From Vulcanimicrobiota bacterium (GTDB lineage Bacteria > Vulcanimicrobiota > Xenobia > Xenobiales > JADMJV01), in the NCBI GenBank assembly GCA_019637395.1, contig JAHBVR010000012.1, positions 65,842-129,841 of the forward strand: a stretch of 64,000 nt of DNA, read 5' to 3'. Every line of letters starts with the position of its first letter. Position 1 is the first letter of the stretch. The translations under genes were made by a program, and so were the position numbers. The notes beneath the pieces are model-generated. The model saw nothing but the letters and a program-made list of their open reading frames with translations. It was not told the DNA's origin and did no database searches. Positions 9,393 through 61,148 of the stretch are shown here, piece by piece.

Positions 9393-9393
9393 T

Positions 9394-10230: not shown

Positions 10231-10258
10231 CCCTTTGGCATTCGAGACGACTTCGCGC

Positions 10259-11104
10259 TCAGCCAACTTTGGACACCACCGGCTTCCGGCAGGTGGCCGC
10301 TTTGAGCACTTCGGCGTGGACCACTTCAAACGGGGGAATTTCCGCATCCCACTCCACCATGGTGGTGCGTGCGCCCAGACGCTGATAGCACTGGGTGTAG
10401 AGCGCCCAGACCTCATCGATGACGTGGTCGTCGTGGGTATCGACGATGTAGGTTCCGTTATTGGTGTGGCCGGAGAGGTGGTGGTAAACCACGTGTTCCC
10501 CAGAGATCTTCTGAATGTATTCCTGGGCGGAAAATCCGTGATTGTAGGAGCTGACATAGACATTATTGACGTCGAGCAACAGGCCGCAGTCGGTTTCTTG
10601 GGTAAGAGCGTTGAGGTAATCCCATTCGGTCAACTGATCCTGGGCCCACTCCAGATAGGTTGAGGGATTCTCCAGAACCAGCGGGACCTCCAGATAGTCC
10701 TGGATTACTTTGAGGCGCCGGCTGACGTGCTCCAGGCTTTCCTGAGTCAGCGGCATCGGCAGCAAGTCGTGGGTATTGCGCCCCAGAATGCCGGTCCAGC
10801 AAAGGTGATCGGAAACCCAGCGGGCTTTGACCAGACCGATCAGATTCTTGAGCAGCTTGAGGTATTCGAAGTCGATCGGGTCGGTGCTGCCCACCGAAAG
10901 AGAAACGCCGTGCAGCAACACCGGATAGCGCTCGGCGATCTGCTCGAGCATGTAAATGGGACGGCCACCCGAACCCATGTAGTTCTCGACGATGATTTCA
11001 AAGAAATCGACCTGGGGCCAGTGCTCTAAAATATGACTGTAGTGCACGGTGCGCAGGCCCATGCCAAATCCCAGGTCCGGAAATCCCCACTTGTTGACGA
11101 TCAT
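10259..11104 (-). CDS. DUF692 / UPF0276 family protein (MbnB-like TIM-barrel di-iron enzyme family)
   Basis: N-terminal signature GFGMGLRTVHYSHILEHWPQVDFFEIIVENYM. Length 281 aa. Confidence 0.8.
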   Translation of the reverse strand: MIVNKWGFPDLGFGMGLRTVHYSHILEHWPQVDFFEIIVENYMGSGGRPIYMLEQIAERYPVLLHGVSLSVGSTDPIDFEYLKLLKNLIGLVKARWVSDHLCWTGILGRNTHDLLPMPLTQESLEHVSRRLKVIQDYLEVPLVLENPSTYLEWAQDQLTEWDYLNALTQETDCGLLLDVNNVYVSSYNHGFSAQEYIQKISGEHVVYHHLSGHTNNGTYIVDTHDDHVIDEVWALYTQCYQRLGARTTMVEWDAEIPPFEVVHAEVLKAATCRKPVVSKVG

Positions 11105-15676: not shown

Positions 15677-16705
<1,029 letters not shown>

Positions 16706-17442: not shown

Positions 17443-18012
17443 ATGCTCCTCCTACCTCTCGGACTTTCCGTTTACGCTCTGGGTCTGGGCGCGGCCTCGC
17501 GTTACTTTTTCGGCAAATACCTGGTTTACGGTCACCATCCGGGAATACTCTACCTGGCGGGGTTGGTACTCAGCCTCTGTCTTTGTCCCTGGGGTGCGCA
17601 GACTGTCTATGCTCGATTCTGGTCGGTGCTGGCCAGCTTCTTCACCGCCTTGACCGCCACGCTCACAGCCTTTCTTTACCTGGTGATGAAGCGCAACTAC
17701 GAGCGCTACTGGTTTCTCGTCATCGTCCTGGCCGTCTGCGTCGGAGTTCCCCTGCTGGCCCTGGCGGTGACCTCCCCAGTGTTGCTTTTCGTTTATCATA
17801 TGGCCCTGGCTCTCGGTCGCCGCTACTTCCCGCTGCTGGCCCTGGAAGGACTCGTGTTTTTGGGCCTGTGCCTTTTCCGCATCTACGGGGCCTACCATCC
17901 AGAATACGAACTCATGGCCTTCCGAGCCTTTGGCTACTGGTGTATTAGCTATAGTCTCACCCTGCTCGGTCTGGCCCTCAGCTACTACCTCCACCCCCAC
18001 AAGCCGACTTAG
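17443..18012 (+). CDS. Hypothetical polytopic membrane protein
   Basis: Six hydrophobic segments. A candidate promoter TTGACG-17-TAAATT lies at ~17362-17396. Ends with a TAG stop at 18010-18012. Confidence 0.45.
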   Translation: MLLLPLGLSVYALGLGAASRYFFGKYLVYGHHPGILYLAGLVLSLCLCPWGAQTVYARFWSVLASFFTALTATLTAFLYLVMKRNYERYWFLVIVLAVCVGVPLLALAVTSPVLLFVYHMALALGRRYFPLLALEGLVFLGLCLFRIYGAYHPEYELMAFRAFGYWCISYSLTLLGLALSYYLHPHKPT

Positions 18013-18180
18013 GGCTCGGCGCTTGATAAGGTGGGCGTTTCGGCGCCAGATGGCGTGAGGAGGAACGACAAGGCGTATCGGGTTATCGGTGCGGAGTTGC
18101 GACGCAGCGGGTGGGGATGGATCTGGCGCCCAAACGTCTGAGTTATTAAGCGACGGGTCCTTAACTGAAGGAGGACCTAG
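18013..18180 (+). repeat. Conserved intergenic element, copy A (candidate 3'-UTR sRNA or miniature repeat); inverted partner at 48122..48296
   Basis: The ~97-nt core at 18064..18160 is ~98% identical to the reverse complement of 48136..48236. The flanks are partly conserved. The element starts directly at the TAG stop of the upstream gene. Confidence 0.6.
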
Positions 18181-18186
18181 GAATCG

Positions 18187-18544
18187 CTTGATTTGGCCGA
18201 TAGCCAGCTCACTGATTGGGCTTCTAATCTTGGGAGCCTGTGGGAAAGAACCGCCTAAACGTTTCGGCAATAAAGTGACTGCCTATGGCGCTCCGGAATG
18301 CACCAGCAATCTGAAGAATATCGGCACCGCTTTAGAAATGTATAAAATGGATCACAGCCTGGCTCAGCTGGTTCCTCAATATTTCAAGGCCCTGCCCACC
18401 TGCCCCGCCGTGCAAAGTGACACGTATCCGGCAAGTTACCAACTGAAAGGCAGCCGCTACGAGTTTTGCTGCCGGGGTAACAACCACGACTTCGGAGGTG
18501 ATCGGCCGTCCTATTCCAGCGACGGAGGGTGCATCACCCGCTAG
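18187..18544 (+). CDS. Small Cys-rich lipoprotein (hypothetical)
   Basis: TTG start preceded by AGGA. Lipobox LILGAC. Six Cys in ~120 aa. Confidence 0.45.
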
Positions 18545-22047: not shown

Positions 22048-25000
22048 ATGAACTCGGCGCCTGTCAAAATCTCGAAGGCCGCCCGATTGCTAGCCGAATT
22101 GCTGGCAGTCAGCGGCCTTTCTCTTTCCAAGCCGGCCTGGAGCAATGGACTCCGATCTTACGCACGGTTGGCCGACGCCAGCCTGCCCACTGCCGATCTC
22201 GACCCCGTTCTCCAAGAGCTGGTGGACCATGATATGGTGGCTCGCCAAAACGACCAGGCCAAACTGGTGGACCGAGTTTGCGAAGAGATTCTTCTTCAGA
22301 TCCGCAAGGAAAGGCGGGCCGGACTGGTTTCCAGCGCTCTTTTCGAGCATGTTTTTCCGCTGCTGAGCAGCCCTTTTGACAAGGCTCAGGTGAACTTCCG
22401 CACCAGCCTGCTTTTCGGCACGGCCCGCTACATCAATCAGAGCTACCATCAATTTGAGGGGGCGGCCGGCAAACCACGGGAACTGGCCCAAATCGCCCGC
22501 GGCTGGCGCCACGCCGAGTCTTTTCAACAAGTGGATTCGCGCTGGCACCAGGCGCTGCTGGAAAAGTCGCTGGAATGGGCGGTGGAACGCTGCGAAGAAG
22601 CCCCCGGCGCGGTAGCCTTTTGTGAGCGCCAATCGCAACTGAACAACCAGGTTCTGCTTTACCTGGGGCTCTACTGGTTCACGCGCGGCAACGACGAGCA
22701 AACCAGACGCTTTCTGCAAGCGGCCAACCGCATCCCCAGCCTGCCGGGGCTGGTAGCTTTCGACCTCAAACGCTACGACACGGCACTGGAATGCTTCGCC
22801 CAGGCGGCCAGCCGCACCGAAAATCCGGTTCTTTACCTACCTATCACCCGCCTGGCCCGGGTTCTCTGCCTGTTGCGCCAGGGTGAGGCGGCCCAAGCTC
22901 AGGTCTGCTGCGGACCTGAGCTGCAGGGGGTCGATCCCTGGCTGCGCTGGCTGTGCGACCAGCGCCAGGGCAAAGCGCGCCATGCCCGGCCCAGTTTCAA
23001 CGCCGCCGAGGGAGCGGGAACTTCCCTCTGGCTGACGGCGGCCAGTTGCGCCCTGACGGTCAACGACCGAGAATTGCAGGGGCAATTGCGCGAAAGCGGC
23101 CAACAGTTAGCTCAGCAAGCCCATTCCCAAGGTTTTCTCTGGGTGGAACGGCAGCTGCAGCGCTTTCTGCACAAGTTCGCTCACCCTCGCGCCGAATGCT
23201 GCCCCTGGGACTGCGTGGTGCCCGAGCAGCCCTGGAAGCTACGCCTCAAACAGTTACTCGACCTGGCCCAGAAACCCCGTTTCGAGCCCGAGGAACGGAT
23301 CATCTGGACGGTCCGGCCGGCGGCCGCCGGCTGGGAAGCAGTGCCCAAGCTGCAAAGCCAGGCCAAGCGCGGCGGCTGGTCCAAAGGCCGCCAACTGGAA
23401 TTGTTCCGCACCCCTCCCGCCTGCGCCGATGAATACGATCTGCGCGTCTTCCGCCAGGCGCTGGCCCGCGATTTTACCTTGAGCGACGTATTCCACTCGC
23501 TGGTCGGCCATCCCCGAGTGTTCCACGAAGACACCGGCCAGCAAATCGAGATCGTGGAGGGCCGCCCCGAGTTTCAGGTCAACAAAGGCCCAAACGGATT
23601 GGCCGTGCGCATCCTGCCCAGTTGCCTGGACTCGAGCGGCCAGGTGATCGAGCTGGTCGGCCACACCACGCTAAAAGTCTATCGATTCGACCCGCTACTG
23701 CGAGAATTTAGCGAGATTCTGGGCGATGGCCTGGAAGTGCCCGAGAGCGAGCAGGCGGCTGTGCAATTGTTGCTGGATAAGCTGCCGGCTGAATTCGCCA
23801 TCGCTTCCGACCTGGCCAGCGAAGCGGTCCAGGAAGTGGCCGGCGACCCCACTCTCTACCTGCGCATCCGCCCCCTGCGTGAGGGCCTCGAATTGAACAT
23901 GCTGGTCCGCCCTTTAGGCGCGGATGGACCCGAGTATCCCCCCACCCACGGGGGCCAGAGGGTACTGTTGCGCCAGCATGGGCGCCGGGTCCAGGCGGTG
24001 CGCAATCTGGAGTCGGAGAGTCTGGCCTGCCAACGGGTGTTGGAGGCCTGCCCGGGCCTGAGGCCGGAGCAGGGCACGGCCCACTGGGTCACTCCCGACT
24101 TGCCGGCCAGCCTGGAGGTTCTCGAGCAAATCGGACGCCTGCCGGCCGAGGCCCTGACGGTGGAATGGCCGGAAGGACAATCGCTGCGCATCCGCCACCG
24201 GGTGGGCGGCGAAAATCTGCGCCTGCAGGCCCAGACGCAAGGCGACTGGTTCCATGTGCAGGGACAGTTGGAACTATCGGCCGAGGAACACTGGCAACTT
24301 CAGGACTTGTTGGAGCGCATGCGCAATCAAACGGGTCGATTCATCGCCCTGGGCTCGGGCGAGTTCCTGGCTCTGACCGAAGAGTTGCGCCGCCGCCTAC
24401 AAGAACTCTCCAACCTGGTCGAACCGGCCAAAGGCAAAGCCATCAAAGTTCATGGTCTGCTGATCGGGGCTCTGCAAGAAATCGCCCCCACCGAAGGTGA
24501 CGAGCACTTTCAGGAACGTCTGGCGCGCCTCAACGACAGCCACTCGATCAAGCCTCCGCTCCCCAAGACTTTCCAGGCCGAGTTGCGCGCTTACCAGAGG
24601 GAAGGCTTCGAGTGGCTGAGCCAGCGGGCTCACTGGGGGGTGGGAGCCTGTCTTTCAGACGATATGGGGCTGGGCAAAACCCTGCAAACTCTGGCTCTGT
24701 TGGTGCACCGGGCGCCGCTGGGCCCGGCCCTGGTGATTGCTCCCACCTCGGTATGTGGCAACTGGTTGGAGGAAGCGCGCCGTTTCGCCCCCACCCTGCG
24801 GGTCCACTGGCTGCTCGACGGGGAGCGCCAGAGCGTGGTGGAAAAAGCGGAAGCTTTCGATGTCCTGCTCGTCAGCTACGGCGTGGTCGTGCGCGAACTC
24901 AAGATTTTGAGCGCGCGCACCTTCGCCACTTTGGTGGTGGACGAAGCCCAGGCCATCAAGAATCACGCCACCCAGCGTTTTCAAGCGGTGCTCAAGATTC

Positions 25001-25938
25001 CCTCCGACTTTCGAGTGGTCACCACCGGAACCCCGGTGGAAAACCGCCTGGAAGAACTGTGGGCGCTCTTCCGTTTCCTCAATCCGGGACTGTTGGGCAG
25101 CCTGGAACGTTTCCGCGAGCGCTTTATCGCTCCCATCGAAGCCGGTCAGGCACCGGCCCGCCAGCACCTCAAGAAGCTGGTCCATCCGTTCCTGTTGAGG
25201 CGCACCAAGACCCAGGTGCTGCACGAATTGCCGGCGCGCACCGATATCACGCTGGAAGTTCCGCTCAGCCCCTCCGAGCGCACCTTTTACGAGGCCTTGC
25301 GCACGCGGGCGCTGGAGAAACTCAACGGCAGCGAGGTCGAAGCCATGCAGGTGCTGGCCGAGTTGACCCGCTTGCGCCGAGCCTGCTGCCATCCCTCTCT
25401 GGTCGAGCCCAAAAAGAAGGCGGGCGAAGGTTCCAAGTTGGAAGCCGTGCGCGAATTGCTCAACGACATGCGCGAGGGAGGCCATCGCGCTCTGATCTTC
25501 AGCCAGTTCGTCGACCATCTGCAGCTTTTGCGCCAGGAACTGGACCAGCAGCAGTTGAGCTATCAGTACCTCGACGGCACCACCCCGGCCCAGGAACGCA
25601 GCCGCCGGGTGAAGGCTTTTCAGGCGGGTGATGGCGAGGTGTTCCTCATCAGTTTGCGCGCCGGTGGCTTCGGCTTGAATCTGACCGGAGCGGATTACGT
25701 GATCCACATGGATCCCTGGTGGAACCCGGCGGTCGAGGATCAAGCTTCGGACCGAGCACACCGCATCGGGCAGCTGCGTCCGGTCACCGTCTACCGGCTG
25801 GTAGCCAAGGACACGGTAGAGGAAAAAATCCTGGCGCTGCACCGCCAAAAGCGAGAGCTGGCTCAAGGCCTGCTGGAAGGGGCAGAGGAAGGACTGCGCC
25901 TCAGCGCCAGCGAGCTGCTGGCCTTGATGCAGGCTTGA
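22048..25938 (+). CDS. SNF2-family DNA-dependent ATPase/helicase with a long N-terminal extension (bacterial SNF2-associated region)
   Basis: C-terminal half carries SNF2_N motifs (LRAYQREGFEWL, DDMGLGKTLQTLALL, DEAQAIKN, TGTPVENRLEELWALFRFLNPG) and the helicase-C motif (QASDRAHRIGQ). About 800 aa of N-terminal extension. 1296 aa in total. Confidence 0.85.
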   Translation: MNSAPVKISKAARLLAELLAVSGLSLSKPAWSNGLRSYARLADASLPTADLDPVLQELVDHDMVARQNDQAKLVDRVCEEILLQIRKERRAGLVSSALFEHVFPLLSSPFDKAQVNFRTSLLFGTARYINQSYHQFEGAAGKPRELAQIARGWRHAESFQQVDSRWHQALLEKSLEWAVERCEEAPGAVAFCERQSQLNNQVLLYLGLYWFTRGNDEQTRRFLQAANRIPSLPGLVAFDLKRYDTALECFAQAASRTENPVLYLPITRLARVLCLLRQGEAAQAQVCCGPELQGVDPWLRWLCDQRQGKARHARPSFNAAEGAGTSLWLTAASCALTVNDRELQGQLRESGQQLAQQAHSQGFLWVERQLQRFLHKFAHPRAECCPWDCVVPEQPWKLRLKQLLDLAQKPRFEPEERIIWTVRPAAAGWEAVPKLQSQAKRGGWSKGRQLELFRTPPACADEYDLRVFRQALARDFTLSDVFHSLVGHPRVFHEDTGQQIEIVEGRPEFQVNKGPNGLAVRILPSCLDSSGQVIELVGHTTLKVYRFDPLLREFSEILGDGLEVPESEQAAVQLLLDKLPAEFAIASDLASEAVQEVAGDPTLYLRIRPLREGLELNMLVRPLGADGPEYPPTHGGQRVLLRQHGRRVQAVRNLESESLACQRVLEACPGLRPEQGTAHWVTPDLPASLEVLEQIGRLPAEALTVEWPEGQSLRIRHRVGGENLRLQAQTQGDWFHVQGQLELSAEEHWQLQDLLERMRNQTGRFIALGSGEFLALTEELRRRLQELSNLVEPAKGKAIKVHGLLIGALQEIAPTEGDEHFQERLARLNDSHSIKPPLPKTFQAELRAYQREGFEWLSQRAHWGVGACLSDDMGLGKTLQTLALLVHRAPLGPALVIAPTSVCGNWLEEARRFAPTLRVHWLLDGERQSVVEKAEAFDVLLVSYGVVVRELKILSARTFATLVVDEAQAIKNHATQRFQAVLKIPSDFRVVTTGTPVENRLEELWALFRFLNPGLLGSLERFRERFIAPIEAGQAPARQHLKKLVHPFLLRRTKTQVLHELPARTDITLEVPLSPSERTFYEALRTRALEKLNGSEVEAMQVLAELTRLRRACCHPSLVEPKKKAGEGSKLEAVRELLNDMREGGHRALIFSQFVDHLQLLRQELDQQQLSYQYLDGTTPAQERSRRVKAFQAGDGEVFLISLRAGGFGLNLTGADYVIHMDPWWNPAVEDQASDRAHRIGQLRPVTVYRLVAKDTVEEKILALHRQKRELAQGLLEGAEEGLRLSASELLALMQA

Positions 25939-27817: not shown

Positions 27818-30800
27818 ATGAGCTCAAAGAAGGCCTCGGGGGGAGTGGCGGAGACTTCCACGCCCCGGGCGCGTTACAAAGCGTTGGGCTCCATGATCCA
27901 TGGGCTGTTGGAGCGATTGGGGGAGCACACTCGAGTGCTTTCTCAGCTCAAGAGCGCTCACTGCAATCCCAAGAGCGTTTACTGGGAGCTGCCCGCTTTT
28001 GTAGCCCCCTTGTTGGGCCAGCTGGCCCTCGAGTTAAAGGCGGCCACCGAGGAGTTGGGGGGCTGGCTCTTCGTGGAGGAACTCTCCAGAGCCATCACCT
28101 GTGAAAAGAACGTGGTGGGCAACCTGATTCGGCTGGCTTCGCTGCTGCAAGCCTTCGGCTGTCGGTTGGCCGAGGGCAAGCTCATCTGCACCGACGCCTC
28201 TCGCCAGCAACTCCTGGAACATCTGCGGCTGAGCGGGCGCGTACCCGGGCCACTCAGCCAGTTGCAGGCCGATTGCCAGGAATTTTTCGGCCGTTCTGTG
28301 GACGAAAAGACGCTGGCCTCGCTGATCGGACAGACGCTCTCGCCGGGCGTGGTGGCCGAGGTGGACAAGAAGTTGGTCGTTTTCAGCCTGGATCGACCTC
28401 CCTCGTGCCGGGATCTTTTGCTGGGCTGCCTGCGTCTCTGGAGAGGCCCCCTGAATTTGCGCGAGTTATTGAGCAAACTCAAGAAACTGGAAGTCTTTCA
28501 GGCCACCGCCTTGGAACTCGAAATGGAGGTCCACGGCCTCAAAGCTGAAGGCAAAGTCGGCGAGCGAGAAGGGATGTTTTTTCTGAGCGACAGCCGGCCC
28601 GGCCGCCTCGATCAGCTCGACCCGGCCGAGGTAGCCGATCTGGTTTTCCAGACGCTCTTTGAAATCGCCACCGCCGACGGAGTGGTGCGCTCGGAAGAAA
28701 TGTCCCTGATCGGCAACTTGCTGGCGGTGGAATTCGAGTTGCCCGCCGATGTGCGCGAGCCTTTCGAAACCCTGCTGGGTTTGGCCGTGCATCGCTCCCT
28801 GGACCATCAGCAACTGGGCCAACCTCTTTCAGCCCAAAAAGTGGCCGGCTTCCCCCAAGAATTGCGCGACCGGGTCTTCCGTGGAGCGGTGGCGGTGGCC
28901 TTTGTCGACCTCGAGATCCACGACCACGAACGCCAGGCCCTGGAAGGGGTGGCCCGGCGGCTGAGCACCTCGCTACCCGTGCCAGCCGTGGTCGAGCGCT
29001 TTGCCGAGATGTGCCGCCCTCCCTACGTCGACTATGCCTACTTCGGCATTTTGCCCGACCGTTACGACCCCGACCGATTGCATGAAAAATTCCTGGCCCT
29101 GCATCAGCACTACCTGGAGAAACTGGCCGGAGAGGATCAGCCGCCAGCCCAGGAAATCCGGCGCCTGCAACGGCTGCTCGGTGAATTCTACCGGCAACTC
29201 CCCTCTCAGCCCGCTCCCTGGTTGGTTGGCCTGGATCTGGAGAAGCCGGCCCTGCCTGCGCATAGCCTCTTGCCCCTCCATTGTTTCCTGCGCGTGGGGC
29301 GCTGCGATGGTCCCCTCAGCGAGAGGGAAGCCCGGGTTATTTCGCGATTGGTGCGTGGCAGTTTGGATAACCTGCAGGATCGCGCCCTATGGAATCTACA
29401 AACCCGCCCGCTGGCCAACCTGCAGCTGCCTGCTCCCGAGCTGGACGCGACCAGTTCGAGGCTGCGCATGCTCAGCTTCAGTCTGGTGGTGGCGCTCTGC
29501 GACGGGCCTCTCAACGTGGAAAAGTCGCGCGAACTGCTCTCTTTGGCCAGCGACCTGGGGGTCTCGGAGCGCAGCTTTCAGGTACTGCACCAACTGGAAC
29601 AGGCCGCCCGGCGACATCTTCAGGAGGATCCAGCCCTGGAGCAACTGGAGCGTTTGGAACTGGCTCTGGCCGAAGCCGAGCAACTGCCTGTGGACTCAAG
29701 CGCAGGCGCAACGGCCAGGGCCACGCCGCTGGTGTTGCCGGAATTGGAGCCGGGAGGTCATCCTTATCTGGTGGTGATCCGCCCCTCAGGGCGGCACAAT
29801 TTCATCGTCCACCTGCGGGTGCGCTCCGAACTCAACGACGTCCCCTTTCTCCAGGAGCAATTGAACGCGGCCATCCAGGCCCGGCCCTGGTTACGCGACC
29901 AGTGCGGTGGGCGCAGCTGGTTTCTCTGCAAGGGGGTGAGCAACTGCCTGCGCCTGCTCCATGAAGTGAAAGACAGTCCCTTTGAAGTGCAGTGGCCCCA
30001 CGGCCAGCCCTTCCAGGTTTTGGGCAAAGCCGGACTGCATAACCTGCGAGCCACCATCGGCCAAAAACAAGGCTGGTTCGAAATCGGCGGCAAACTACAG
30101 TTAGGTCAGGGACACCAGATCGGCTTGCTGGACTTGCTCGAGCGGGTGCGTCACCATCCCGACGCCATCGCCGTGGCTCCCGATACCTTCGTGCAGATCG
30201 ACGACGCCTTGCGCGGGCAGTTAGAAACGCTGAACTCGCTCTTACCCGAGGACATGAACGCCGGTACCATCGACCCTTTGCGGGCTCGCCTGGTGGCCGG
30301 TCAGGTACATTTTTTCGAGGACCAGACCAACAATCACGAGTTCTCCCGCCTGGCCGCCCTGATCGAGGAGGCCGGCGAAATTCGCCCCGACCTCCCCGCC
30401 GAGCTCTGGGAACGCCTGCGTGACTATCAAAAAGAAGGCGTGGAGTGGATGCTGCGCACTCTCCACGCCGGTCTGGGCGCCTGTTTGGCCGACGACATGG
30501 GCCTGGGCAAGACCTTGCAAACCCTTTGCGTCCTCTATCACCGACGCGCTCAGGGCCTCAGCCTGGTGGTGGCGCCTACTTCCGTTACCTATAACTGGAA
30601 AGAGCAGGCGCAGCGTTTTTTACCCGACCTGCGCGTCATGCTCTACGAGGGGCCGGGCCCGGTCCGCCATCTGGCGGCGGAGAAGCTGGACGAGTTTGAA
30701 GTCATCGTGGTCAGTTACGGCATTTTTCACAAGGATCACGCGTTGCTGGGCCAGCGAGAGTGGAACTGCCTGGTGCTGGACGAAGCTCAGAAAATCAAAA

Positions 30801-31762
30801 ATCCTACCTCGGCCACGGCCCGGAGCGCCTTCCAAATGCATGCGCGCGCCCGCCTGGCCACGACCGGCACGCCCATCGAAAACCATCTGCTGGAACTGTG
30901 GAGTCTGATGAACTTCCTCAATCCCGGCTTGCTCGGCTCGCAAAACAGCTTTCGCCAGACCTACCTGAGCCGGAACGAAGAGGGAGCGGAGAACGAGCGG
31001 CTGGTCCGGCTGCGCTCGCAAGTGGCCCACTTTATCCTGCGCCGGCGCAAGCAAATGGTGGCCCCGCAACTGCCGGCCAAGTTGGAAACAGTGCACCGTA
31101 TCGACCTTTCCAGCCAGGAGCGCGAATTCTATAACCAGATCCGCCGTGGCGCGCTGCAAATGCAAAAAGAAGATCGAATCAGCCTGCTGACGGCGCTCAC
31201 GCGCCTGCGCCAGGCCTGTTGTGATCCGGCGCTGGTGGATGAGCAATGGATGGCGGCCAGCTCCAAGATCGTGACGGCCGTGGAGATGCTGGCGGAAGTC
31301 AGCGCTGAGGGCCACCAAATCCTGGTTTTCAGCCAGTTCGTGAGCCTGCTCAAGCGCCTGGCCCGCCAGTTGGACGAAGAAGGCCTGCCCTACCGAACTC
31401 TTTACGGCTCCACGGTGGTGGAAGAACGGCGCGCCCTGGTGGAGGATTTCCAGCAGGGCAACTTCCGTATCTTCCTGATCAGCCTGAAAGCTGGCGGCAC
31501 CGGGCTGACACTGACCCGAGCCGACTACGTGTTGCACCTGGACCCCTGGTGGAATCCGGCTGTTGAGGATCAAGCCACGGACCGTGCCCATCGCATCGGC
31601 CAGACCCAGACGGTCAACGTCTACCGTCTGATCGCCCGCGAAACCGTCGAGGAAAAAGTGCTGGAATTGCACCAGAGCAAACGCGAGTTAGCCGAAGCAG
31701 TGCTGGCTCAGGACGGCTCTCCCAGCGTGCTCAGCCTCGAGGACCTGAAAGCTCTACTCTAG
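27818..31762 (+). CDS. SNF2-family ATPase/helicase, paralog 2, with TerB-like repeats in the N-terminal extension
   Basis: SNF2 motifs (LRDYQKEGVEWML, DDMGLGKTLQTLCVL, DEAQKIKNP, TGTPIENHLLELWSLMNFLNPG, QATDRAHRIGQ). The N-terminus carries two segments with an A.ADG....E..L pattern (ATADGVVRSEEMSLIGNL; ALCDGPLNVEKSRELLSLASDLG) that resemble TerB/DjlA-N. 1314 aa. Confidence 0.85.
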   Translation: MSSKKASGGVAETSTPRARYKALGSMIHGLLERLGEHTRVLSQLKSAHCNPKSVYWELPAFVAPLLGQLALELKAATEELGGWLFVEELSRAITCEKNVVGNLIRLASLLQAFGCRLAEGKLICTDASRQQLLEHLRLSGRVPGPLSQLQADCQEFFGRSVDEKTLASLIGQTLSPGVVAEVDKKLVVFSLDRPPSCRDLLLGCLRLWRGPLNLRELLSKLKKLEVFQATALELEMEVHGLKAEGKVGEREGMFFLSDSRPGRLDQLDPAEVADLVFQTLFEIATADGVVRSEEMSLIGNLLAVEFELPADVREPFETLLGLAVHRSLDHQQLGQPLSAQKVAGFPQELRDRVFRGAVAVAFVDLEIHDHERQALEGVARRLSTSLPVPAVVERFAEMCRPPYVDYAYFGILPDRYDPDRLHEKFLALHQHYLEKLAGEDQPPAQEIRRLQRLLGEFYRQLPSQPAPWLVGLDLEKPALPAHSLLPLHCFLRVGRCDGPLSEREARVISRLVRGSLDNLQDRALWNLQTRPLANLQLPAPELDATSSRLRMLSFSLVVALCDGPLNVEKSRELLSLASDLGVSERSFQVLHQLEQAARRHLQEDPALEQLERLELALAEAEQLPVDSSAGATARATPLVLPELEPGGHPYLVVIRPSGRHNFIVHLRVRSELNDVPFLQEQLNAAIQARPWLRDQCGGRSWFLCKGVSNCLRLLHEVKDSPFEVQWPHGQPFQVLGKAGLHNLRATIGQKQGWFEIGGKLQLGQGHQIGLLDLLERVRHHPDAIAVAPDTFVQIDDALRGQLETLNSLLPEDMNAGTIDPLRARLVAGQVHFFEDQTNNHEFSRLAALIEEAGEIRPDLPAELWERLRDYQKEGVEWMLRTLHAGLGACLADDMGLGKTLQTLCVLYHRRAQGLSLVVAPTSVTYNWKEQAQRFLPDLRVMLYEGPGPVRHLAAEKLDEFEVIVVSYGIFHKDHALLGQREWNCLVLDEAQKIKNPTSATARSAFQMHARARLATTGTPIENHLLELWSLMNFLNPGLLGSQNSFRQTYLSRNEEGAENERLVRLRSQVAHFILRRRKQMVAPQLPAKLETVHRIDLSSQEREFYNQIRRGALQMQKEDRISLLTALTRLRQACCDPALVDEQWMAASSKIVTAVEMLAEVSAEGHQILVFSQFVSLLKRLARQLDEEGLPYRTLYGSTVVEERRALVEDFQQGNFRIFLISLKAGGTGLTLTRADYVLHLDPWWNPAVEDQATDRAHRIGQTQTVNVYRLIARETVEEKVLELHQSKRELAEAVLAQDGSPSVLSLEDLKALL

Positions 31763-45636: not shown

Positions 45637-46714
45637 GGTGAAGATCGGCAACCCCTTTTCCAAACTCAGCTTCACTGCTTGCCTCAACCGCCAGGCTCAG
45701 GCTGATTTTCAGCCGCAGTCGGTGGAGCAGGCAGTGGACGGCATGGTTTTCTCTAAAGCTCTCAAAGCCGCCCGTCCCGAAACCGATCGCACTTTTAAGA
45801 CCGACCGCCTGAACCCAGCTGCTGACGCTCTGTTACTCAATCTGGTCGACAAGCTTCCCAGGTCGCTGGCCAGCATGACCTGGTCGGCCATCAAGCGCTG
45901 GGTACACCAGGGCGACGCCACCCCGGAGCCACTCAAAGACAAGCAGGGGGCCGACTTTCAGGTAGGCACCCAGGTCCCCATCAAGATGGACGCCCTGATG
46001 GATACGCTAAGAAGCGAGATGACGGAGTATAAGCCCAGCATTGGCGCCGAGCATGTCTGGAGCAAGGATGCCAAAGGTTACCAGGGTCTGGGCTTCTGGA
46101 GCCGAGTCGGCTCGTTCCTCAAAGGCGAGCGACCCTTTCCCTTCCCCACCTTCGGCCGCAGCAAGTTGATTTGCGCCCTGGGCCTGGGAGCCACCAGTGT
46201 GGTGATGCCCACCGGCCAGGAAAAGGGACTGCGCGACTGGATGCTGGAGCAAAAGCAGGGCTCCATCGAGCTTCATCAACTCTTCGGGCAGGCCTACAAG
46301 CTCAATCAGGGAGACCTCTACAGCACTCTGCTGTGCGCCGAGAACGTGCTCAGCGAGGGGCTCTATGATCCCAATCGTCAGGACCGCGAAGTCATCTCCA
46401 AACTCAGCTACCTGCGCAGCGATTCCGCCCCGCTGGGAGACAATTTCGGCGGCTGGTATCATCTCTTCGGCGCCGCCCTGTATTCCCTGATGCGCCCGGA
46501 GTGGAAATCCAGCGTATGCCTCAAAGTCGAGGACATGGGCAGCTTGATCCTGGAAGGCAAGGATACCCAGGAAGATCATATCAACCAGTTGGGCAGACAG
46601 CTCGGCATCGAACTCAAGAAAATCGCCCGCCAAGGCTTGCAGCCGGGCGGCCAAGCCCATCCCTACCTGAACCTGGCCGAATTCAACTGGCCCCGCAGCA
46701 CCAAAGTCGTCTAG
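45637..46714 (+). CDS. Hypothetical protein
   Basis: The track ORF starts inside the upstream gene. The start is either GTG 45637 or ATG 45737. No recognisable domain. Confidence 0.4.
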
Positions 46715-47361
46715 TCGTCATGGCTGGCTTTGGCGCTACCGGTGATGGGGATCTCGGGGCCTAGAAAGGCCGGGTCAGGACGAAGGATGTAAACGTTGAG
46801 GACGGCTTTGCAACGAGCTAAATACTCACGGGAGTCGTTGTAGTTGGCGTCCAGGTAGGCGCGCTTGTCGGCCACTACTCCCTGCGCCTTGATGCCCGCA
46901 CTGCGAGCCAAAAACACGGAGCGGTCCAGGTGAAAACCGTTGGTGACCACCACCGCGTTCTCTACCAAAAAAACCCGGCGGGCGCGGACCATGGTGTCGT
47001 AGGTGTTGAAGCCGGCGTGGTCGGTGAAGATTTTATCGTCGGGAACGCCGCGGTCACGAGCGTAGCGGCGCATGGCGTTGACTTCATCGTAATTGGACTG
47101 GCCGTGATCGCCGCTCATCAGCAGCCGCTCCACTTTACCCGCTTTATAGAGCGCGATGGCCGCGTCGACCCGATCCTCCAGCACCGGGCTGAGGCGCCCG
47201 CTGCGGCCGTAAACCAGAGCCCCGAGCACGATGCCCACCTGGGCGTGGTCTACTTGCTCCGGCGGCACCACGTAGGGCCGGGCCCTCCAGTGCACCCACC
47301 AGTTCATCAAGGGAGCCGCGCACAAAGCTCCAAAGAACAGCACAAAGAACAACCACAGCAT
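46711..47361 (-). CDS. SanA / YdcF (DUF218) family protein
   Basis: DUF218 core (LVLGALVYGRSGRLSPVLEDRVDAAIALYKAGKVERLLMSGDHGQSNYDEVNAMRRYA...). The ATG at 47361 has SD GAGGA. N-terminal TM anchor. Confidence 0.65.
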   Translation of the reverse strand: MLWLFFVLFFGALCAAPLMNWWVHWRARPYVVPPEQVDHAQVGIVLGALVYGRSGRLSPVLEDRVDAAIALYKAGKVERLLMSGDHGQSNYDEVNAMRRYARDRGVPDDKIFTDHAGFNTYDTMVRARRVFLVENAVVVTNGFHLDRSVFLARSAGIKAQGVVADKRAYLDANYNDSREYLARCKAVLNVYILRPDPAFLGPEIPITGSAKASHDD

Positions 47362-47497
47362 CTTTCGTCCTCGCGACCAGCCTTTCATTGTTCTGCATCA
47401 TAGCAGGACAGGTATACCGAGGGCGAGGTACCTCCTCGTCCTGTTCGCCGCCGATGTTTCGCATACGATGGAGATACACCCGAGATGGGAGAAGACG

Positions 47498-47893
47498 ATG
47501 ATGAAAAACCAATGGATGATTTTGTTGACCGCCGCCACTCTGGCGCTAGGCTGTTCTCAAGCGGAACGCAGCGATATGGCCAGTAAGGCCGATCAGAGCA
47601 TGCAGCAAGCGGAACAAACGGCCAAAAAGGAAGTGAAAAAAGCCGGACAGGCCCTGGACGAAGGCATGAGTTCCACCCGCATCAAGTCCGCTTTGCTGGC
47701 CAGCAAAAAGCTGGACGCCAGCAATATTAACGTAGATACGGCGCAGAAGACCGTCTTTCTACGCGGCAGTGTAAAAACCGAAGAGCAGAAGAAATTAGCC
47801 AACGACCTGACCAATAACCTGATGGAACCGGATCAGAAGCTGGTGAATGAGTTGAAAATCGCCGCCCATCCCGATCCGAATCGACCTCAGTAG
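47498..47893 (+). CDS. BON-domain lipoprotein (OsmY-like)
   Basis: SD GGGAGA. Lipobox LALGCS. BON-like segment (IKSALLASKKLDASNINVDTAQKTVFLRGSVKTEEQK). Confidence 0.6.
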   Translation: MMKNQWMILLTAATLALGCSQAERSDMASKADQSMQQAEQTAKKEVKKAGQALDEGMSSTRIKSALLASKKLDASNINVDTAQKTVFLRGSVKTEEQKKLANDLTNNLMEPDQKLVNELKIAAHPDPNRPQ

Positions 47894-47921
47894 GCCCCGC
47901 CGGCACGGAGGGATGGAACGA

Positions 47922-48074
47922 ATGACAGAGCCAATTTTCGAACTTCGCTTTCAAGAACTGATTGGGGAGCGTCCCATCGTCAAAGAAGGCAGCCGCTCGG
48001 CCGTCATCTTTCTGCAGGCCCTCTTTGAGGTGGCCGGCGAGTTTTACGAAGAAGAAGAGGACGAGGCGGCCTGA
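47922..48074 (+). CDS. Small acidic protein, ~50 aa (hypothetical, unlisted ORF)
   Basis: MTEPIFELRFQELIGERPIVKEGSRSAVIFLQALFEVAGEFYEEEEDEAA, with GGAGG ~10 nt upstream and a strong terminator immediately after. Confidence 0.3.
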   Translation: MTEPIFELRFQELIGERPIVKEGSRSAVIFLQALFEVAGEFYEEEEDEAA

Positions 48075-48082
48075 TCAACGCG

Positions 48083-48121
48083 AAAAAAATCGACCGGGAA
48101 GTTTCTCCCCGGTCGATTTTT
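48083..48121. terminator. Bidirectional rho-independent terminator
   Basis: AAAAAAAT-CGACCGGG-aagtttctc-CCCGGTCG-ATTTTT: an 8-bp GC-rich stem with A-runs and T-runs on the two sides. Confidence 0.75.
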
Positions 48122-48296
48122 GCCGGAGGAGCTTAGGACCCGTCGCTTAATAACTCAGACGTTTGGGCGCCAGCTCCATCCCCACCCGCTGCGTCGCAAC
48201 TCCGCACCGTATAACCCGATACGCCTTGTCGTTGCTCCTTGCGGGAGGGGCGCCTCTGGCACCGAAACGCCCACCTTATTAAGCGCCGGGCCCCTA
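48122..48296 (-). repeat. Conserved intergenic element, copy B (reverse orientation)
   Basis: The reverse complement of 48136..48236 matches 18064..18160 with one indel and one mismatch. The element begins at the TAG stop (48294-48296) of the minus-strand ligase gene and ends at the bidirectional terminator. Confidence 0.6.
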
Positions 48297-49463
48297 GATA
48301 GCCAGCGCCACCGGCTCCATGTTGAAGCGGAACTCTTCCATGAGGTGGTTGAGCACCGCCTTCAGGCTGCGGCTGCGCCGGTAAACCTGACGCTGACGCT
48401 GGGCACTGTTACCGCGCTCCAGGATGAGGTGGGCGCGGTGCAGATGGTGAGCGCAGCCCAGGCGTTGGGCGTGGCTTTCCAGGCGGTGGAACAGAGCGTG
48501 CAACTCCTGCCCCAGGCAGGTGATGGTAGCCTGCTCGTCGGTGATCATTTCGGCTTCCAGGCCCCAGCGAATGGCGCGCCACTTGTTCTCGCGCAAACGC
48601 CACTCGGAGGTGTGAGCGGGCAAGCGTCCCTGCTGGCGCTGCTCTTCCAGATAGGAAAACAGGCTCTGCACCACGGCCACCAGCGCCATGGTATCACCCA
48701 GGTGAGCCTGGCCGTCACAAATGCGCAACTCCAAGGTGCCGAAGTGAGGGCAGGGTCGGATATCCCAGTGCAGATCCTTGAGACTCCCGATGGCACCGCT
48801 GCGCAGCATCTGGCGAGTCAGATTCAGATAATCCTGCCAGTCGCGCAAAGGCGGAGCCGGGCCGGAGATGGGCTGGCTCTCGAAGACGGTGGCGCGCGAA
48901 CTGGCCAGGCCGCTGTCTTGACCGTGCCAGAAAGGCGAGCTGGCTGAGAAGGCCAGCAGGTAGGCCAGATAGGGACGAGCGGCGTTAAGTAACTCGATGG
49001 CCTGCTGGCCGCTGGTCATTCCCAAATGAATATGCAGTCCAAAAAGATTCTTGTTCTTGCCGATCCACTGATTTTTCTTGAGCAGGCGGCGATAGCGGCG
49101 GTCCGGATAGAGATGGGCCTCTTGACCCAGACCGGCAAACGGATGGGTGCCCACACCGGCAATGGCGATGCCGAACTTTTCCGCCACTTCCAGTAAGCGG
49201 TAGCTGGATTCTCCCAGGTCGCGCTCGGCTTCATCCACCGTTTTACAGACTCCAGTGACCATTTCCAGCATCGTTGAATAAAATTCAGGCTTGAAGGCTG
49301 AGGAATCACCCAGGGCGGCCAACAGCCGAGGCGAGACGGGGGCCAGGTCGAGCGACTTGCGATCCAGCAGCTGCACTTCGACTTCGACGCCCAGCGTCAG
49401 GAATTCTGAAGGATGAAAGTCCTCATTTTGAGTGGCTAGCTGTAGCATGGATGCGCGCTCCAA
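48294..49463 (-). CDS. ybdK: Carboxylate-amine ligase, YbdK / glutamate-cysteine ligase family 2 (GCS2)
   Basis: 389 aa. The N-terminal LTLGVEVEVQLLD motif matches the GCS2 fold. Confidence 0.75.
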   Translation of the reverse strand: MERASMLQLATQNEDFHPSEFLTLGVEVEVQLLDRKSLDLAPVSPRLLAALGDSSAFKPEFYSTMLEMVTGVCKTVDEAERDLGESSYRLLEVAEKFGIAIAGVGTHPFAGLGQEAHLYPDRRYRRLLKKNQWIGKNKNLFGLHIHLGMTSGQQAIELLNAARPYLAYLLAFSASSPFWHGQDSGLASSRATVFESQPISGPAPPLRDWQDYLNLTRQMLRSGAIGSLKDLHWDIRPCPHFGTLELRICDGQAHLGDTMALVAVVQSLFSYLEEQRQQGRLPAHTSEWRLRENKWRAIRWGLEAEMITDEQATITCLGQELHALFHRLESHAQRLGCAHHLHRAHLILERGNSAQRQRQVYRRSRSLKAVLNHLMEEFRFNMEPVALAI

Positions 49464-52432: not shown

Positions 52433-53554
52433 CTACGTGGGGATTTGGCCGGTAGTCAGGCGGAAAACAGCGCGCGCCGTGCTTTTCAATCCCTCGAGCT
52501 GACTTTCCAACGAATCAGCCGGCACGTTCGCCAAAGCCTGGGCGAGCATTTCGAACTGGCGCGAGTTGATCTGGAAGCGCCGGGCCATGGCCGGATTCCA
52601 ATGGGCCAGCAGGCGGTCGCGGTCGGGCAGCTCGGCCTTGGGCAAGCCCAATTGGCCGGCTATCTGCTGGTCGAACCGGGTATCTTTGCCCACGTCGGCC
52701 AGGAAGGTGGGAGTAAATTTCAATGAGCCGGCCAGGCCCATGTTCAGCTCCTGAGCTAATCCCTGCACCGATTCCACGGCCATATCGAAGCTGTGGGCGT
52801 AGAAACCGGCCTGATCGGCAAAACGCAGCGCCAGTCCGTCGCGCATTATCTCGACTTGCTTCTCGGGGGGGAGCTGCTGAAGTAGTTCCTGGTAGACCTG
52901 GACTGAACTCTGGCCGTCGTAGCGGGTGCCCATGGCGGCTTTGGGCTGGTCGTCGAAGGGAAAGTCGCTACGGGCCACCAGAGCCTTGGCTTCGATAAAC
53001 TGCTCCGGACTCCAGCCGAAACGCCCGCTCAGTTCCTCTTGCTGCTGCTCCATCCACTCCAACGTCACCTGGGCCCGGGCCGGGGTGCCCGTTTTGACTT
53101 CGCCGCTGTCCACCTGACTGCGATCGTCGGCGTCATGGAGCAGGGCGACCTGCTGGATGAACTGCTTGCGTTCGGGCGACCAACCCAAACCCTGGCCGAA
53201 AGCACCGGCTGCCTCGGCCACCACCAGCGGGTGATCAAAGTTATGGTAAGTTCCACTATTGAGTGCTTGAAACTCGGTGCTGCTGAAATAGCGCGAGGCC
53301 AGCTCGGCTACGCCGGAGCAGGCAGTGCCGTGCCAGCTGGCCTCAGCTCCTCGGGCCAACTGTTCGGCCTTAGGGTTGACCAGCGAAGCGGCCGGCTCCC
53401 ACTTTAACGTCCTGGGTGGGAGATCCCATGGCTGAGCGCTCTCAGCCGAACATCCCGTTTCAAAAGTTGGCGCAGCCGCGGCGGAGTTTGCTCTCGGGCA
53501 ACCCTTGGGGAGGGAGGTGAGGCGAGGCAGGGTCAGGTTGCTGATGATGGCCAT
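52433..53554 (-). CDS. HD-motif domain protein, paralog 1 (uncharacterised family)
   Basis: The track ORF (to 53980) has an implausible N-terminus. The ATG at 53554 has SD AAGGAG 8 nt upstream. H...HD motifs YHNFDHP / ALLHDADDR. Shares a strongly conserved core with the gene at 60047..61012. Confidence 0.6.
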   Translation of the reverse strand: MAIISNLTLPRLTSLPKGCPRANSAAAAPTFETGCSAESAQPWDLPPRTLKWEPAASLVNPKAEQLARGAEASWHGTACSGVAELASRYFSSTEFQALNSGTYHNFDHPLVVAEAAGAFGQGLGWSPERKQFIQQVALLHDADDRSQVDSGEVKTGTPARAQVTLEWMEQQQEELSGRFGWSPEQFIEAKALVARSDFPFDDQPKAAMGTRYDGQSSVQVYQELLQQLPPEKQVEIMRDGLALRFADQAGFYAHSFDMAVESVQGLAQELNMGLAGSLKFTPTFLADVGKDTRFDQQIAGQLGLPKAELPDRDRLLAHWNPAMARRFQINSRQFEMLAQALANVPADSLESQLEGLKSTARAVFRLTTGQIPT

Positions 53555-59950: not shown

Positions 59951-60046
59951 CCCGATATCTGAGAAAAAGCTGGCGGGCTTCCAACCGGGCGGAGAAACTC
60001 CAACGCCTTCAGAGCATGACGAATGATTGGCCTGAGGTCGTGACTG

Positions 60047-61012
60047 TTATAGGGAATGTCCCTCCTTCTGTAAGGCCAGAAACGCCTCTCGTCGGTTGGG
60101 CGACAGAGCCCCCAGCAGAATGTCGCGGGTCGCAAAATCTCCGCTGGGAACAGCCAGGTCATCGGCAATCTTCCAATCCTCGGCCATGTCCAATCCAGCG
60201 GCCCGCAAAAAATCCGGGCTGCCCTTGGCCAGTTGCTCATTGGTGATGTTGATCCCGACGCCGCGCATCTCATCGCCCAGGCCGGCGATGTAGCGGGCGG
60301 ACTGCTCGGCGTCCACGGTGTAATTGCCGGTCTGATCGGCGAAGCGCAAAATCAACCCATCTTCCATGGTCTGCTGACGGCGCTCTTCGGGCACCGCCGC
60401 CAGCAGGTTCTGATAGAGCATGATCGGACTCTGGCCATCGTAACGGGTAGACAGGTTCTTGGGCTTCTCGTCAAAGGGAAAATCAGTGCGGGCGATTAGC
60501 GCCTTGGCCTCGGCAAAATCCGCGCTGTTCCAGCCGAAACGGCCACCCAGGGCCTCCTGATTACGGTCCATCCATTCCAGCGTCACCGGGGCCCGGGCCG
60601 GAGAGACGGCGCTACTCTGGCCGATGCGTTCATCCACGTCGTGCAGCAGGGCCACCTGCTGTAGAAACTCGGCGCGCTCCGGGCTACGCCCCAAATTCCC
60701 AGCGACCTCCGCCACCGTGTTGGCCACATGAACCGGATGCTCCTGATCGTGGTAGTGGCCCGGATTGAGCCTGGCCCACTCCCCCACCGTGAAGTAGCGC
60801 AGCACCAGAGCCGGCAAGCTCCCGTTGGCGGTGGCCGCCGATTGCGCCGCCGCTTCCCCCGAGCGGGCCAGCCGGGCTGCGCCGCCCACTTCCAGCGGCT
60901 GCCCATTCAAAGAGACCAGGTCGAGACATTCCGGCTCAACCGCCGGGACAGAAGGGCGGGAAGCTGTTGGGGGATGACAAACGGGGCTCTTGAACAGAGG
61001 TTGAATAGTCAT
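60047..61012 (-). CDS. HD-motif domain protein, paralog 2
   Basis: YHDQEHPVHV / ALLHDVDER. Strongly conserved core shared with 52433..53554 (FLQQVALLHD, VTLEWM, RFGW, FAEAKAL.AR.DFPFD, TRYDGQS, DGL.LRFADQ). Confidence 0.6.
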   Translation of the reverse strand: MTIQPLFKSPVCHPPTASRPSVPAVEPECLDLVSLNGQPLEVGGAARLARSGEAAAQSAATANGSLPALVLRYFTVGEWARLNPGHYHDQEHPVHVANTVAEVAGNLGRSPERAEFLQQVALLHDVDERIGQSSAVSPARAPVTLEWMDRNQEALGGRFGWNSADFAEAKALIARTDFPFDEKPKNLSTRYDGQSPIMLYQNLLAAVPEERRQQTMEDGLILRFADQTGNYTVDAEQSARYIAGLGDEMRGVGINITNEQLAKGSPDFLRAAGLDMAEDWKIADDLAVPSGDFATRDILLGALSPNRREAFLALQKEGHSL

Positions 61013-61148
61013 AGCTCAAGGATAGCGATGGGACCACCCCAGCCATGTGGTCGGGCTCACAAGAACCGTTAACCTTTCCGGCGCAATTTGTAAACGTTTT
61101 TGTTCAGGGGAGCGGTGAGGGGCGACGCGAAGAAGTCAACCGCGTGGT

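Follow-up and report, generated by a model that had tools for sequence, protein, structure and literature searches.

What kind of element occupies the stretch directly behind the stop codon of a ybdK gene in the genome of a Vulcanimicrobiota bacterium, and how does the same stretch come to recur, inverted, about 30 kb away behind an unrelated gene? Both copies, referred to here as copy B (at ybdK) and copy A, lie in a contiguous stretch of 64,000 nt that was analysed as a whole and is called the window below. Eremiobacterota (WPS-2), an uncultured phylum, is represented by hardly anything but MAGs, and we know of no description of such repeats or of post-transcriptional elements in it. Of the readings that we weighed, the best supported is that of a young, lineage-restricted family of MITE/REP-like repeats.

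The presence of a second, inverted copy of the element at about 18010-18170, claimed in the initial annotation, was confirmed by a repeat search of the window, by blastn and by MAFFT. The repeat search gave two reverse-complement matches, one of 80 nt with 96% identity (18087-18166 with 48130-48209) and one of 39 nt with 92% identity (18012-18050 with 48255-48293), and blastn aligned copies A and B over 159 positions with 88.7% identity (E = 2e-55). The MAFFT alignment revealed, next to a 1-nt indel, that the differences cluster in a single rearranged patch of about 25 nt, which comprises an 8-nt indel and substitutions; when this patch is excluded, the identity of the copies rises to about 96%. 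Copy B is 163 nt long and copy A about 154 nt. Their inverted orientation and the distance between them argue against a tandem duplication, as had been pointed out before. A 20-mer of the 5' arm, searched with up to 3 mismatches, matched only at copies A and B in the window, with 0.01 matches expected from shuffles, and no third copy in the window was detected by blastn, nhmmer or a covariance model. One weak covariance-model match, inside an aldo-keto reductase gene (16390-16511, minus strand; 16.5 bits, E ~0.1), is probably due to chance. Among all local inverted repeats of the window, the two hairpins of the element, with GGGCCCGGCGCTTAATAAGGTGGGCGTTTC and GTCTGAGTTATTAAGCGACGGGTCC as marker sequences, are the largest by a wide margin.

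The element is non-coding, as the 1-nt and 8-nt indels between copies A and B shift every frame. A small ORF within the element was considered and rejected, since its reading frame is not the same in both copies. Moreover, the six-frame translation of both copies, concatenated and used as a proxy for spuriously called ORFs, had 0 matches in 5.8 billion proteins.

Table 1. Features of the two loci of the element in the window (strand "." denotes both strands)
Feature	Position	Strand	Remarks
Predicted membrane-protein gene, 189 aa, upstream of copy A	17443..18012	+	
TAG stop of the 189-aa gene, abuts copy A	18010..18012	+	homologues end at the same residue, with TAA/TGA
Copy A of the repeat	18013..18166	+	contig breakpoints 18116, 18134
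Shine-Dalgarno GGAGG (18171-18175) and putative lipoprotein gene	18171..18544	+	probable TTG start at 18188
50-aa conserved ORF closing the BON operon	47922..48074	+	in relatives, stop overlaps the DUF72 start
Bidirectional intrinsic terminator, outside the repeat	48083..48121	.	G+C-rich hairpin with an A-run and a T-run on either side
9-nt spacer, sense UCCUCCGGC, outside the repeat	48122..48130	-	between repeat and terminator
Copy B of the repeat	48131..48293	-	limits from k=31 contig breakpoints 48160 (3') and 48264 (5')
TAG stop of ybdK	48294..48296	-	abuts the 5' end of the element
YbdK-family carboxylate-amine ligase gene, 384 aa, upstream of copy B	48294..49448	-	PF04107

Copy B is flanked by convergent genes (Table 1). 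It starts directly at the TAG of ybdK, in agreement with the initial annotation. The view that it runs into the terminator held only in part: a bidirectional terminator with 17-nt arms, 94% complementary, does follow, and it is predicted to serve both ybdK (minus strand) and the operon of the BON-domain gene and the small ORF (plus strand), but the repeat itself ends at 48131, and the terminator, together with the 9-nt spacer, lies outside of it. Transcription from ybdK through the element to this terminator is plausible from the arrangement. The proposed correspondence between GGAGG at copy A and CTCCTCC at copy B did not stand, as both motifs are located in non-homologous flanks: CTCCTCC belongs to the spacer, and GGAGG is the Shine-Dalgarno sequence of the next gene. 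The tiny ORF on the other side of the terminator is 47-53 aa long, has an acidic C-terminus (EEEEDEAA) and follows the BON-domain gene in all relatives. Copy A is located between unidirectional genes, and because a Shine-Dalgarno sequence and a gene, the putative lipoprotein gene without a Pfam match, follow directly 3' of it, this copy is intercistronic. No terminator was found after copy A.

The limits of the repeat could be read from the places at which assemblies of the same strain break. Logan contigs are the product of a k=31 de Bruijn assembly, and such an assembly breaks k-1 = 30 nt inside a repeat boundary. We located the strain in the Logan assemblies of several sequencing runs via exact-protein look-ups; the exact 384-aa YbdK product was found in 5 samples. 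The contigs with ybdK ended at 48264, 30 nt past the TAG, in 5/5 samples, and those of the BON side ended at 48160 (five samples) or 48164 (one sample). At the other locus, contigs with the gene upstream of copy A ended at 18116, and contigs with the genes downstream of it started at 18134, in three samples each. Each of the main breaks (48264, 48160, 18116 and 18134) lies 30 nt inside the repeat, and the opposite ends of the same contigs vary from sample to sample. It is from these positions that the limits of copy B, and the placement of the terminator outside the repeat, follow. An assembly artefact was rejected, as independent contigs from up to five samples reproduce all four junctions; these contigs cannot show one element copy joining both flanks of copy B. 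Contigs of the same strain, in two samples, also break at 60031, 60985 and 61117, close to the direct repeat D2 (60459-60601 with 52941-53083, 75%), which suggests that the region of about 60030-61120 is another repeat or a strain-variable region.

Copies A and B do not suffice to explain where the contigs break. The break at 18116 is accounted for by copy B, with which the identical run starts at 18087. Copy A differs from copy B at 3 of the first 31 nt, and the break at 48264 needs another copy that reads (not G)GGGCCCGGCG... at this place. Similarly, the break at 48160 needs a copy that has ...GGGTCCTAAGC in common with copy B, as copy A alone would lead to the break at 48164, seen in one sample, and the start at 18134 needs a copy that has ...GGGTCCTTA in common with copy A. 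Because three of the four breakpoints are unexplained by copies A and B alone, we infer that at least two more copies are present elsewhere in the genome, at least four in total, provided that the contigs are k=31 contigs; only copies A and B were seen in full. Judging from the breakpoints, the third copy shares TAAGC with copy B. Unbroken contigs of the same strain contained no further copy within about 22 kb to the left and about 18 kb to the right of the window, and the copy density is low. This low density, with no copy in the further ~40 kb, would suit a non-mobile, low-copy duplication, i.e., a functionless scar of recombination or repair in which gene conversion, or illegitimate recombination, had copied a palindrome a few times at the junctions of rearrangements; a total of at least four copies would not.

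The ends of the element are closely tied to stop codons. Both copies are at distance 0 from the TAG stop of the gene upstream, and their orientation with respect to this gene is the same. Copy A starts with GGCTCGG after ...ACT TAG and copy B with GGGCCCGG after ...ATC TAG, and they end with ...GGGTCCTTAAC and ...GGGTCCTAAGC, respectively, so that the termini overall read 5'-(Y)TAG-GGCCCGG...CCGGGTCC-TAAG(C)-3' and mirror one another as (C)TTAG-GG...CC-TAAG(C). Thus, the TAG of ybdK is mirrored by CTAA at the 3' end of copy B. The sequences CTTA...CTTA around copy A and CTA...CTA around copy B could represent a target-site duplication, and the same bases also extend the palindrome. TAG is not rare as a background in the window, where 21 of 57 crude gene calls stop with TAG and 87 intergenic TAGs occur on both strands. 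Estimated from these gene and TAG counts, the probability that distance 0 and the same orientation in both copies are a coincidence is well under 1%, which speaks against a scar. Placement at distance 0 is unlikely to have arisen by chance unless the TAG (or TA) belongs to the element or is its target. The two upstream genes differ in this respect. YbdK of the relatives ends at the corresponding residue, and its stop codon is also TAG; homologues of the 189-aa protein end at the corresponding residue as well, but their stop codon is TAA or TGA. For this reason the TAG of the gene upstream of copy A may derive from the element.

Each copy is, over its whole length, one long imperfect palindrome. 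RNA folding of copy B gave a hairpin of about 60 pairs, 8 of them G-U, with the apical loop near 48212. The sense strand, which is co-directional with the upstream gene, reached -95.3 kcal/mol in copy B (z = -5.7) and -72.7 kcal/mol in copy A (z = -5.0), as compared with -72.2 and -46.5 kcal/mol for the respective antisense strands. This gap is caused by G-U pairs, which number 8-9 in the sense fold as against 1 in the antisense fold; with DNA folding parameters, the asymmetry of the strands was smaller (-44.8 vs -36.6). Among the 1x1 mismatches, there were no A-C oppositions at all. If the palindrome had decayed at random, G-T and A-C oppositions would be expected at equal frequency, and the observed 8 versus 0 has a probability of about 0.008. 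Moreover, all of the A/B substitutions in shared helices (3/3) stay paired by wobble on the sense strand. In copy A, the three outer helices are intact and the inner helix is destroyed by the 8-nt deletion, which removed its 5' strand, and by substitutions. The halves of the element fold no better than shuffles (z from -0.05 to -0.99). The strand asymmetry is compatible with selection at the RNA level, and the tolerance of G-T wobbles would be equally compatible with a single-stranded DNA intermediate of transposition. A scar without function would hardly be expected to carry this excess of G-U over A-C, which implies selection on one strand.

The same data bear on the possibility that the element is a structured regulatory RNA family, either a 3'-UTR-derived sRNA or a cis-acting 3'-UTR element, with read-through from ybdK giving a stable RNA of about 200 nt. 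Strong strand-specific folding, the 8-9 G-U pairs, the wobble-keeping substitutions, the co-orientation of both copies with the upstream gene, and the intrinsic terminator 9 nt after copy B are all what such a family would predict. Nevertheless, we consider it quite unlikely. One helix takes up nearly all of the sequence, and copy A has no terminator and has lost its inner helix, yet is otherwise 96% identical to copy B, a sign that the copying is recent and not that purifying selection has acted over a long time. Palindromes that span the whole length and have TA in their termini are a typical form of mobile repeats, and the element is multi-copy and behaves like a repeat in assemblies. No promoter-like site was found at the element.

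Comparison with related genomes brought further evidence. The YbdK protein shares 88-92% identity with its counterparts from Candidatus Eremiobacterota / Vulcanimicrobiota MAGs. In two sets of relatives (L001-L010, about 79% nucleotide identity, and L011, about 84%), the locus is syntenic and a convergent DUF72 gene comes after ybdK; the BON-domain gene, the small ORF and the DUF72 gene are also present in the outgroup L038 (77% YbdK identity). In the relatives, DUF72 is translationally coupled to the small ORF through a TTGA overlap. Because the distant L038 has DUF72 as well, the gene is, on this comparison, ancestral and has been lost in the lineage of the window. The homology with L011 stops 1 nt past the ybdK stop and resumes 2 nt past the stop of the small ORF. 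Between these limits, L011 has 896 nt with an 888-nt DUF72 gene, and the window has 216 nt, consisting of the element, the spacer and the terminator (the interval corresponds to 48077-48292 in the window, 8501-9396 in L011, 11156-12045 in L002 and 9009-9887 in L038). A remnant of DUF72 in the 216 nt was rejected, as there is no room for it and no similarity, and no DUF72 gene was found elsewhere in the window or in its flanks of about 20 kb.

In none of the three related Eremiobacterota lineages (L001-L010, L011 and L038) does the 3' end of the orthologous ybdK carry the element, and blastn, nhmmer and a covariance model found none in about 140 kb of syntenic loci of relatives. The terminator occurs in contigs of the same strain only and is likewise absent from the loci of relatives. 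The lack of the element at the orthologous locus of three lineages weighs against a regulatory RNA. Thus, the suggestion in the initial annotation that the stretch yields a dedicated 3'-UTR sRNA is not borne out by the comparative data, which point elsewhere: the element is missing from ybdK orthologues, recurs at an unrelated locus without a terminator, has further copies, and has the anatomy of a repeat. At this site the element is present in one lineage and absent in others, as expected of a MITE, though the site represents a gene replacement with a terminator and not a simple insertion. Two further hallmarks of MITEs are also found. The element is non-coding and, at 154-163 nt, below the limit of about 300 bp; its terminal inverted repeats have arms of 38-41 nt that are 76% complementary without gaps, and its entire length makes one hairpin. 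The copies are about 96% identical outside the patch, against a nucleotide divergence of 16-21% between ybdK and its counterparts in relatives, and this fits a spread of the copies after speciation.

Homologues of the 189-aa gene (56-62% identical) occur in non-syntenic contexts, and an empty site for copy A, sought via these homologues, was not obtained. Both copies thus occur where gene order departs from that of relatives, with DUF72 lost at copy B and synteny broken at copy A, and no transposase is encoded nearby. A recombination scar would explain this readily, but not the identical placement of the copies behind TAG, their number or the wobble asymmetry, and we find it distinctly unlikely. 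A composite transposon or an invertible segment of 30 kb bounded by copies A and B was rejected, since relatives show the ancestral gene order across copy B. As a separate observation, ybdK alone is inverted in L038 (10001-11164, as compared with 10001-11155 in L001), between the DUF72 gene and an Endonuclease_NS gene; on this ground the locus seems liable to rearrangement. A search for inverted repeats on both sides of ybdK, which might account for the inversion, found none.

Searches beyond the locus are consistent with a narrow distribution. Exact 20-21-mers of both arms had 0 matches in 185,579 GTDB species genomes, and the 20-mer of the 3' arm had 0 matches in JGI metagenomes; a central 20-mer had 3 matches there, which were confined to the 20-mer and reflect chance. 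The patterns of both arms had 0 matches in IMG/VR, and blastn found no match of the element in plasmids and phages. In nhmmer searches of 373 kb of fetched loci, and in covariance-model searches of 240 kb of these, only copies A and B and contig ends of the same strain were recovered. Rfam gave 0 matches at gathering score in the window, and relaxation to E<=10 yielded sub-threshold matches on the terminator only and none on the element, which also counts against a regulatory RNA family. No tRNA or tmRNA genes were detected. Pfam runs and precomputed Pfam lists were negative for transposases, RAYTs and integrases, both in the window and in flanks of about 40 kb, and a Y1 transposase was likewise missing from the lists. 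No cognate autonomous IS, the ends of which would match GGGCCCGGCGCTTAATAAGG, was found in the window or flanks.

The element was compared with known repeats of bacterial genomes, with Di Nocera et al. 2013 (PMC3733652) and Bertels & Rainey 2011 (PMC3116915) as the sources on REPs, and Delihas 2007 (PMC2759123) as the source on ERIC and RU. REPs are located within 20 bp of the 3' end of the upstream ORF, and GTAG REPs frequently supply, with their termini, the TAG stop of the ORF (PMC3733652). Like GTAG-tagged REPs and REPINs, the element is an extragenic palindrome whose distance to the upstream ORF's 3' end falls in the REP range of 0-20 nt, with a terminal TAG that coincides with the ORF stop. 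It is also predicted to form a hairpin in single-stranded DNA or mRNA, lies between unidirectional (copy A) or convergent (copy B) genes as REPs and REPINs do, and, like REPs, is species-specific. In contrast to GTAG REPs, its tag is YTAG, with the 5' ends CTAG and TTAG and the 3' ends CTAA and TTAA, so that TAG is present without the G before it and the conserved GTAG (or CGTC) tag is lacking. Unlike a REPIN, it is a single 163-nt palindrome whose halves do not fold, and not a doublet of REP hairpins of 20-40 nt; moreover, no RAYT was seen near it and its copy number appears low. Because its halves are non-palindromic and its tag is not GTAG, the element is not a REPIN in the strict sense.

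The enterobacterial RU/ERIC MITEs are stable stem-loops of 103-168 bp with TA ends (PMC2759123). The element resembles ERIC/IRU (RU-1, 127 bp), RU-2 (168 bp) and RU-3 in size, in being an imperfect palindrome over its whole length and in its long stable stem-loop. It shares with them the intergenic location and TA at the termini, and ERIC/RU are transcribed with their neighbours and sometimes touch or replace the upstream stop codon. Differences are the lack of sequence similarity, the occurrence in another phylum (Eremiobacterota), a TA duplication that is ambiguous with the palindrome, and the single orientation relative to transcription seen so far (n=2). Correia elements of Neisseria are palindromic MITEs of about 100-160 bp with TA ends, which are co-transcribed with genes; their hairpins are RNase III substrates that alter mRNA stability. 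The element is likewise palindromic, of similar size and with TA ends, but it has no sequence similarity to them, and Correia elements have, in addition, IHF sites, promoter elements and a copy number in the hundreds. Finally, 3'-UTR-derived sRNAs, e.g., of the CpxQ or SroC type, use the terminator of the parent mRNA, and copy B is placed, as they are, between a stop codon and an intrinsic terminator. Unlike these sRNAs, the element is repeated at an unrelated terminator-less locus, is absent from orthologous loci and, being nearly all in one helix, has no obvious single-stranded seed.

An imperfect palindrome that directly follows a stop codon and folds in a strand-specific manner is also reminiscent of an attC-like integron recombination site at the 3' end of a gene cassette, and boxes GCTTAAT and ATTAAGC loosely resemble the R'' and R' core sites. 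However, these boxes have AAT/ATT where attC needs AAC/GTT (R'' RYYYAAC, R' GTTRRRY), and they are located 13-19 nt inside the ends of the element, which at 163 nt exceeds the usual 57-141 nt. As the copies are inverted and 30 kb apart and form no array, as no integrase is present, and as the genes on either side are, in relatives, core genes with conserved synteny, an attC-like site is extremely improbable.

We therefore return to a repeat of the MITE/REP kind. The element is probably a non-coding palindromic repeat of about 163 nt, dispersed in the genome and restricted to one lineage, which forms a 3'-UTR or intercistronic hairpin when transcribed together with the upstream gene. Such a repeat would spread, or would have spread in the past, by means of a transposase that acts in trans and has its gene outside the vicinity, and its terminal TAG or TA would be the target site or would supply the stop codon, as with GTAG-tagged REPs. 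After insertion, it would be transcribed together with the upstream gene; co-transcription is suggested by the lack of a promoter-like site and by the position between the stop codon and a terminator (copy B) or a Shine-Dalgarno sequence (copy A). In RNA, the transcribed strand only would fold into the G-U-rich hairpin of about 60 bp. Judging from REP, ERIC and Correia elements, this hairpin would most likely act as a barrier to 3' exonucleases and/or as an RNase III site; the message upstream would thereby gain stability and be uncoupled from the sequence after it. Copy B would then sit in the 3' UTR of ybdK ahead of a separate intrinsic terminator, and copy A in an intercistronic spacer. A more far-reaching reading, which we regard as unlikely, is that of a mobile RNA module homing to stop codons, inserted in a strand-specific manner (HUH/RAYT-like or other) directly 3' of TAG stops, with the hairpin then maintained by selection on the transcribed strand as a transferable device for mRNA 3' ends or insulation, or as a dsRNA precursor.

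If the reading as a MITE/REP-like repeat is right, this would be the first dispersed palindromic repeat family described in Eremiobacterota (WPS-2). The repeat breaks short-read assemblies at fixed points, marks a recent genome rearrangement in which the DUF72 gene was lost and a hairpin and terminator took its place, and adds a case of a repeat end that coincides with a stop codon. The wobble-pair asymmetry, which points to selection on one strand, makes it a candidate mobile mRNA-stability element. The element does not open a new category of system.

Some further features of the window were recorded. GC skew flips at about 46000-48000, adjoining copy B, being negative before about 46 kb and positive after it, and gene orientation turns from mostly plus to mostly minus in the same interval. 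In both copies (n=2) the sense strand of the element is on the locally C-rich strand. Between the two loci, the window carries two paralogous SNF2-family helicase genes of about 1300 aa (22048-25938 and 27818-31762, plus strand), the second of which encodes a TerB domain; small genes of unknown function come after each of them, and the direct repeat D1 (25642-25876 with 31472-31706, 72%) is located at their 3' ends. Upstream of copy A, at about 9300-11100 on the minus strand, an MbnB/TglH/ChrH-family gene adjoins an HvfC_N (DUF2063) gene, according to the Pfam list of a contig of the same strain (L026), and such a pair is typical of peptide-modification loci (RiPP-like or for metal-binding peptides).
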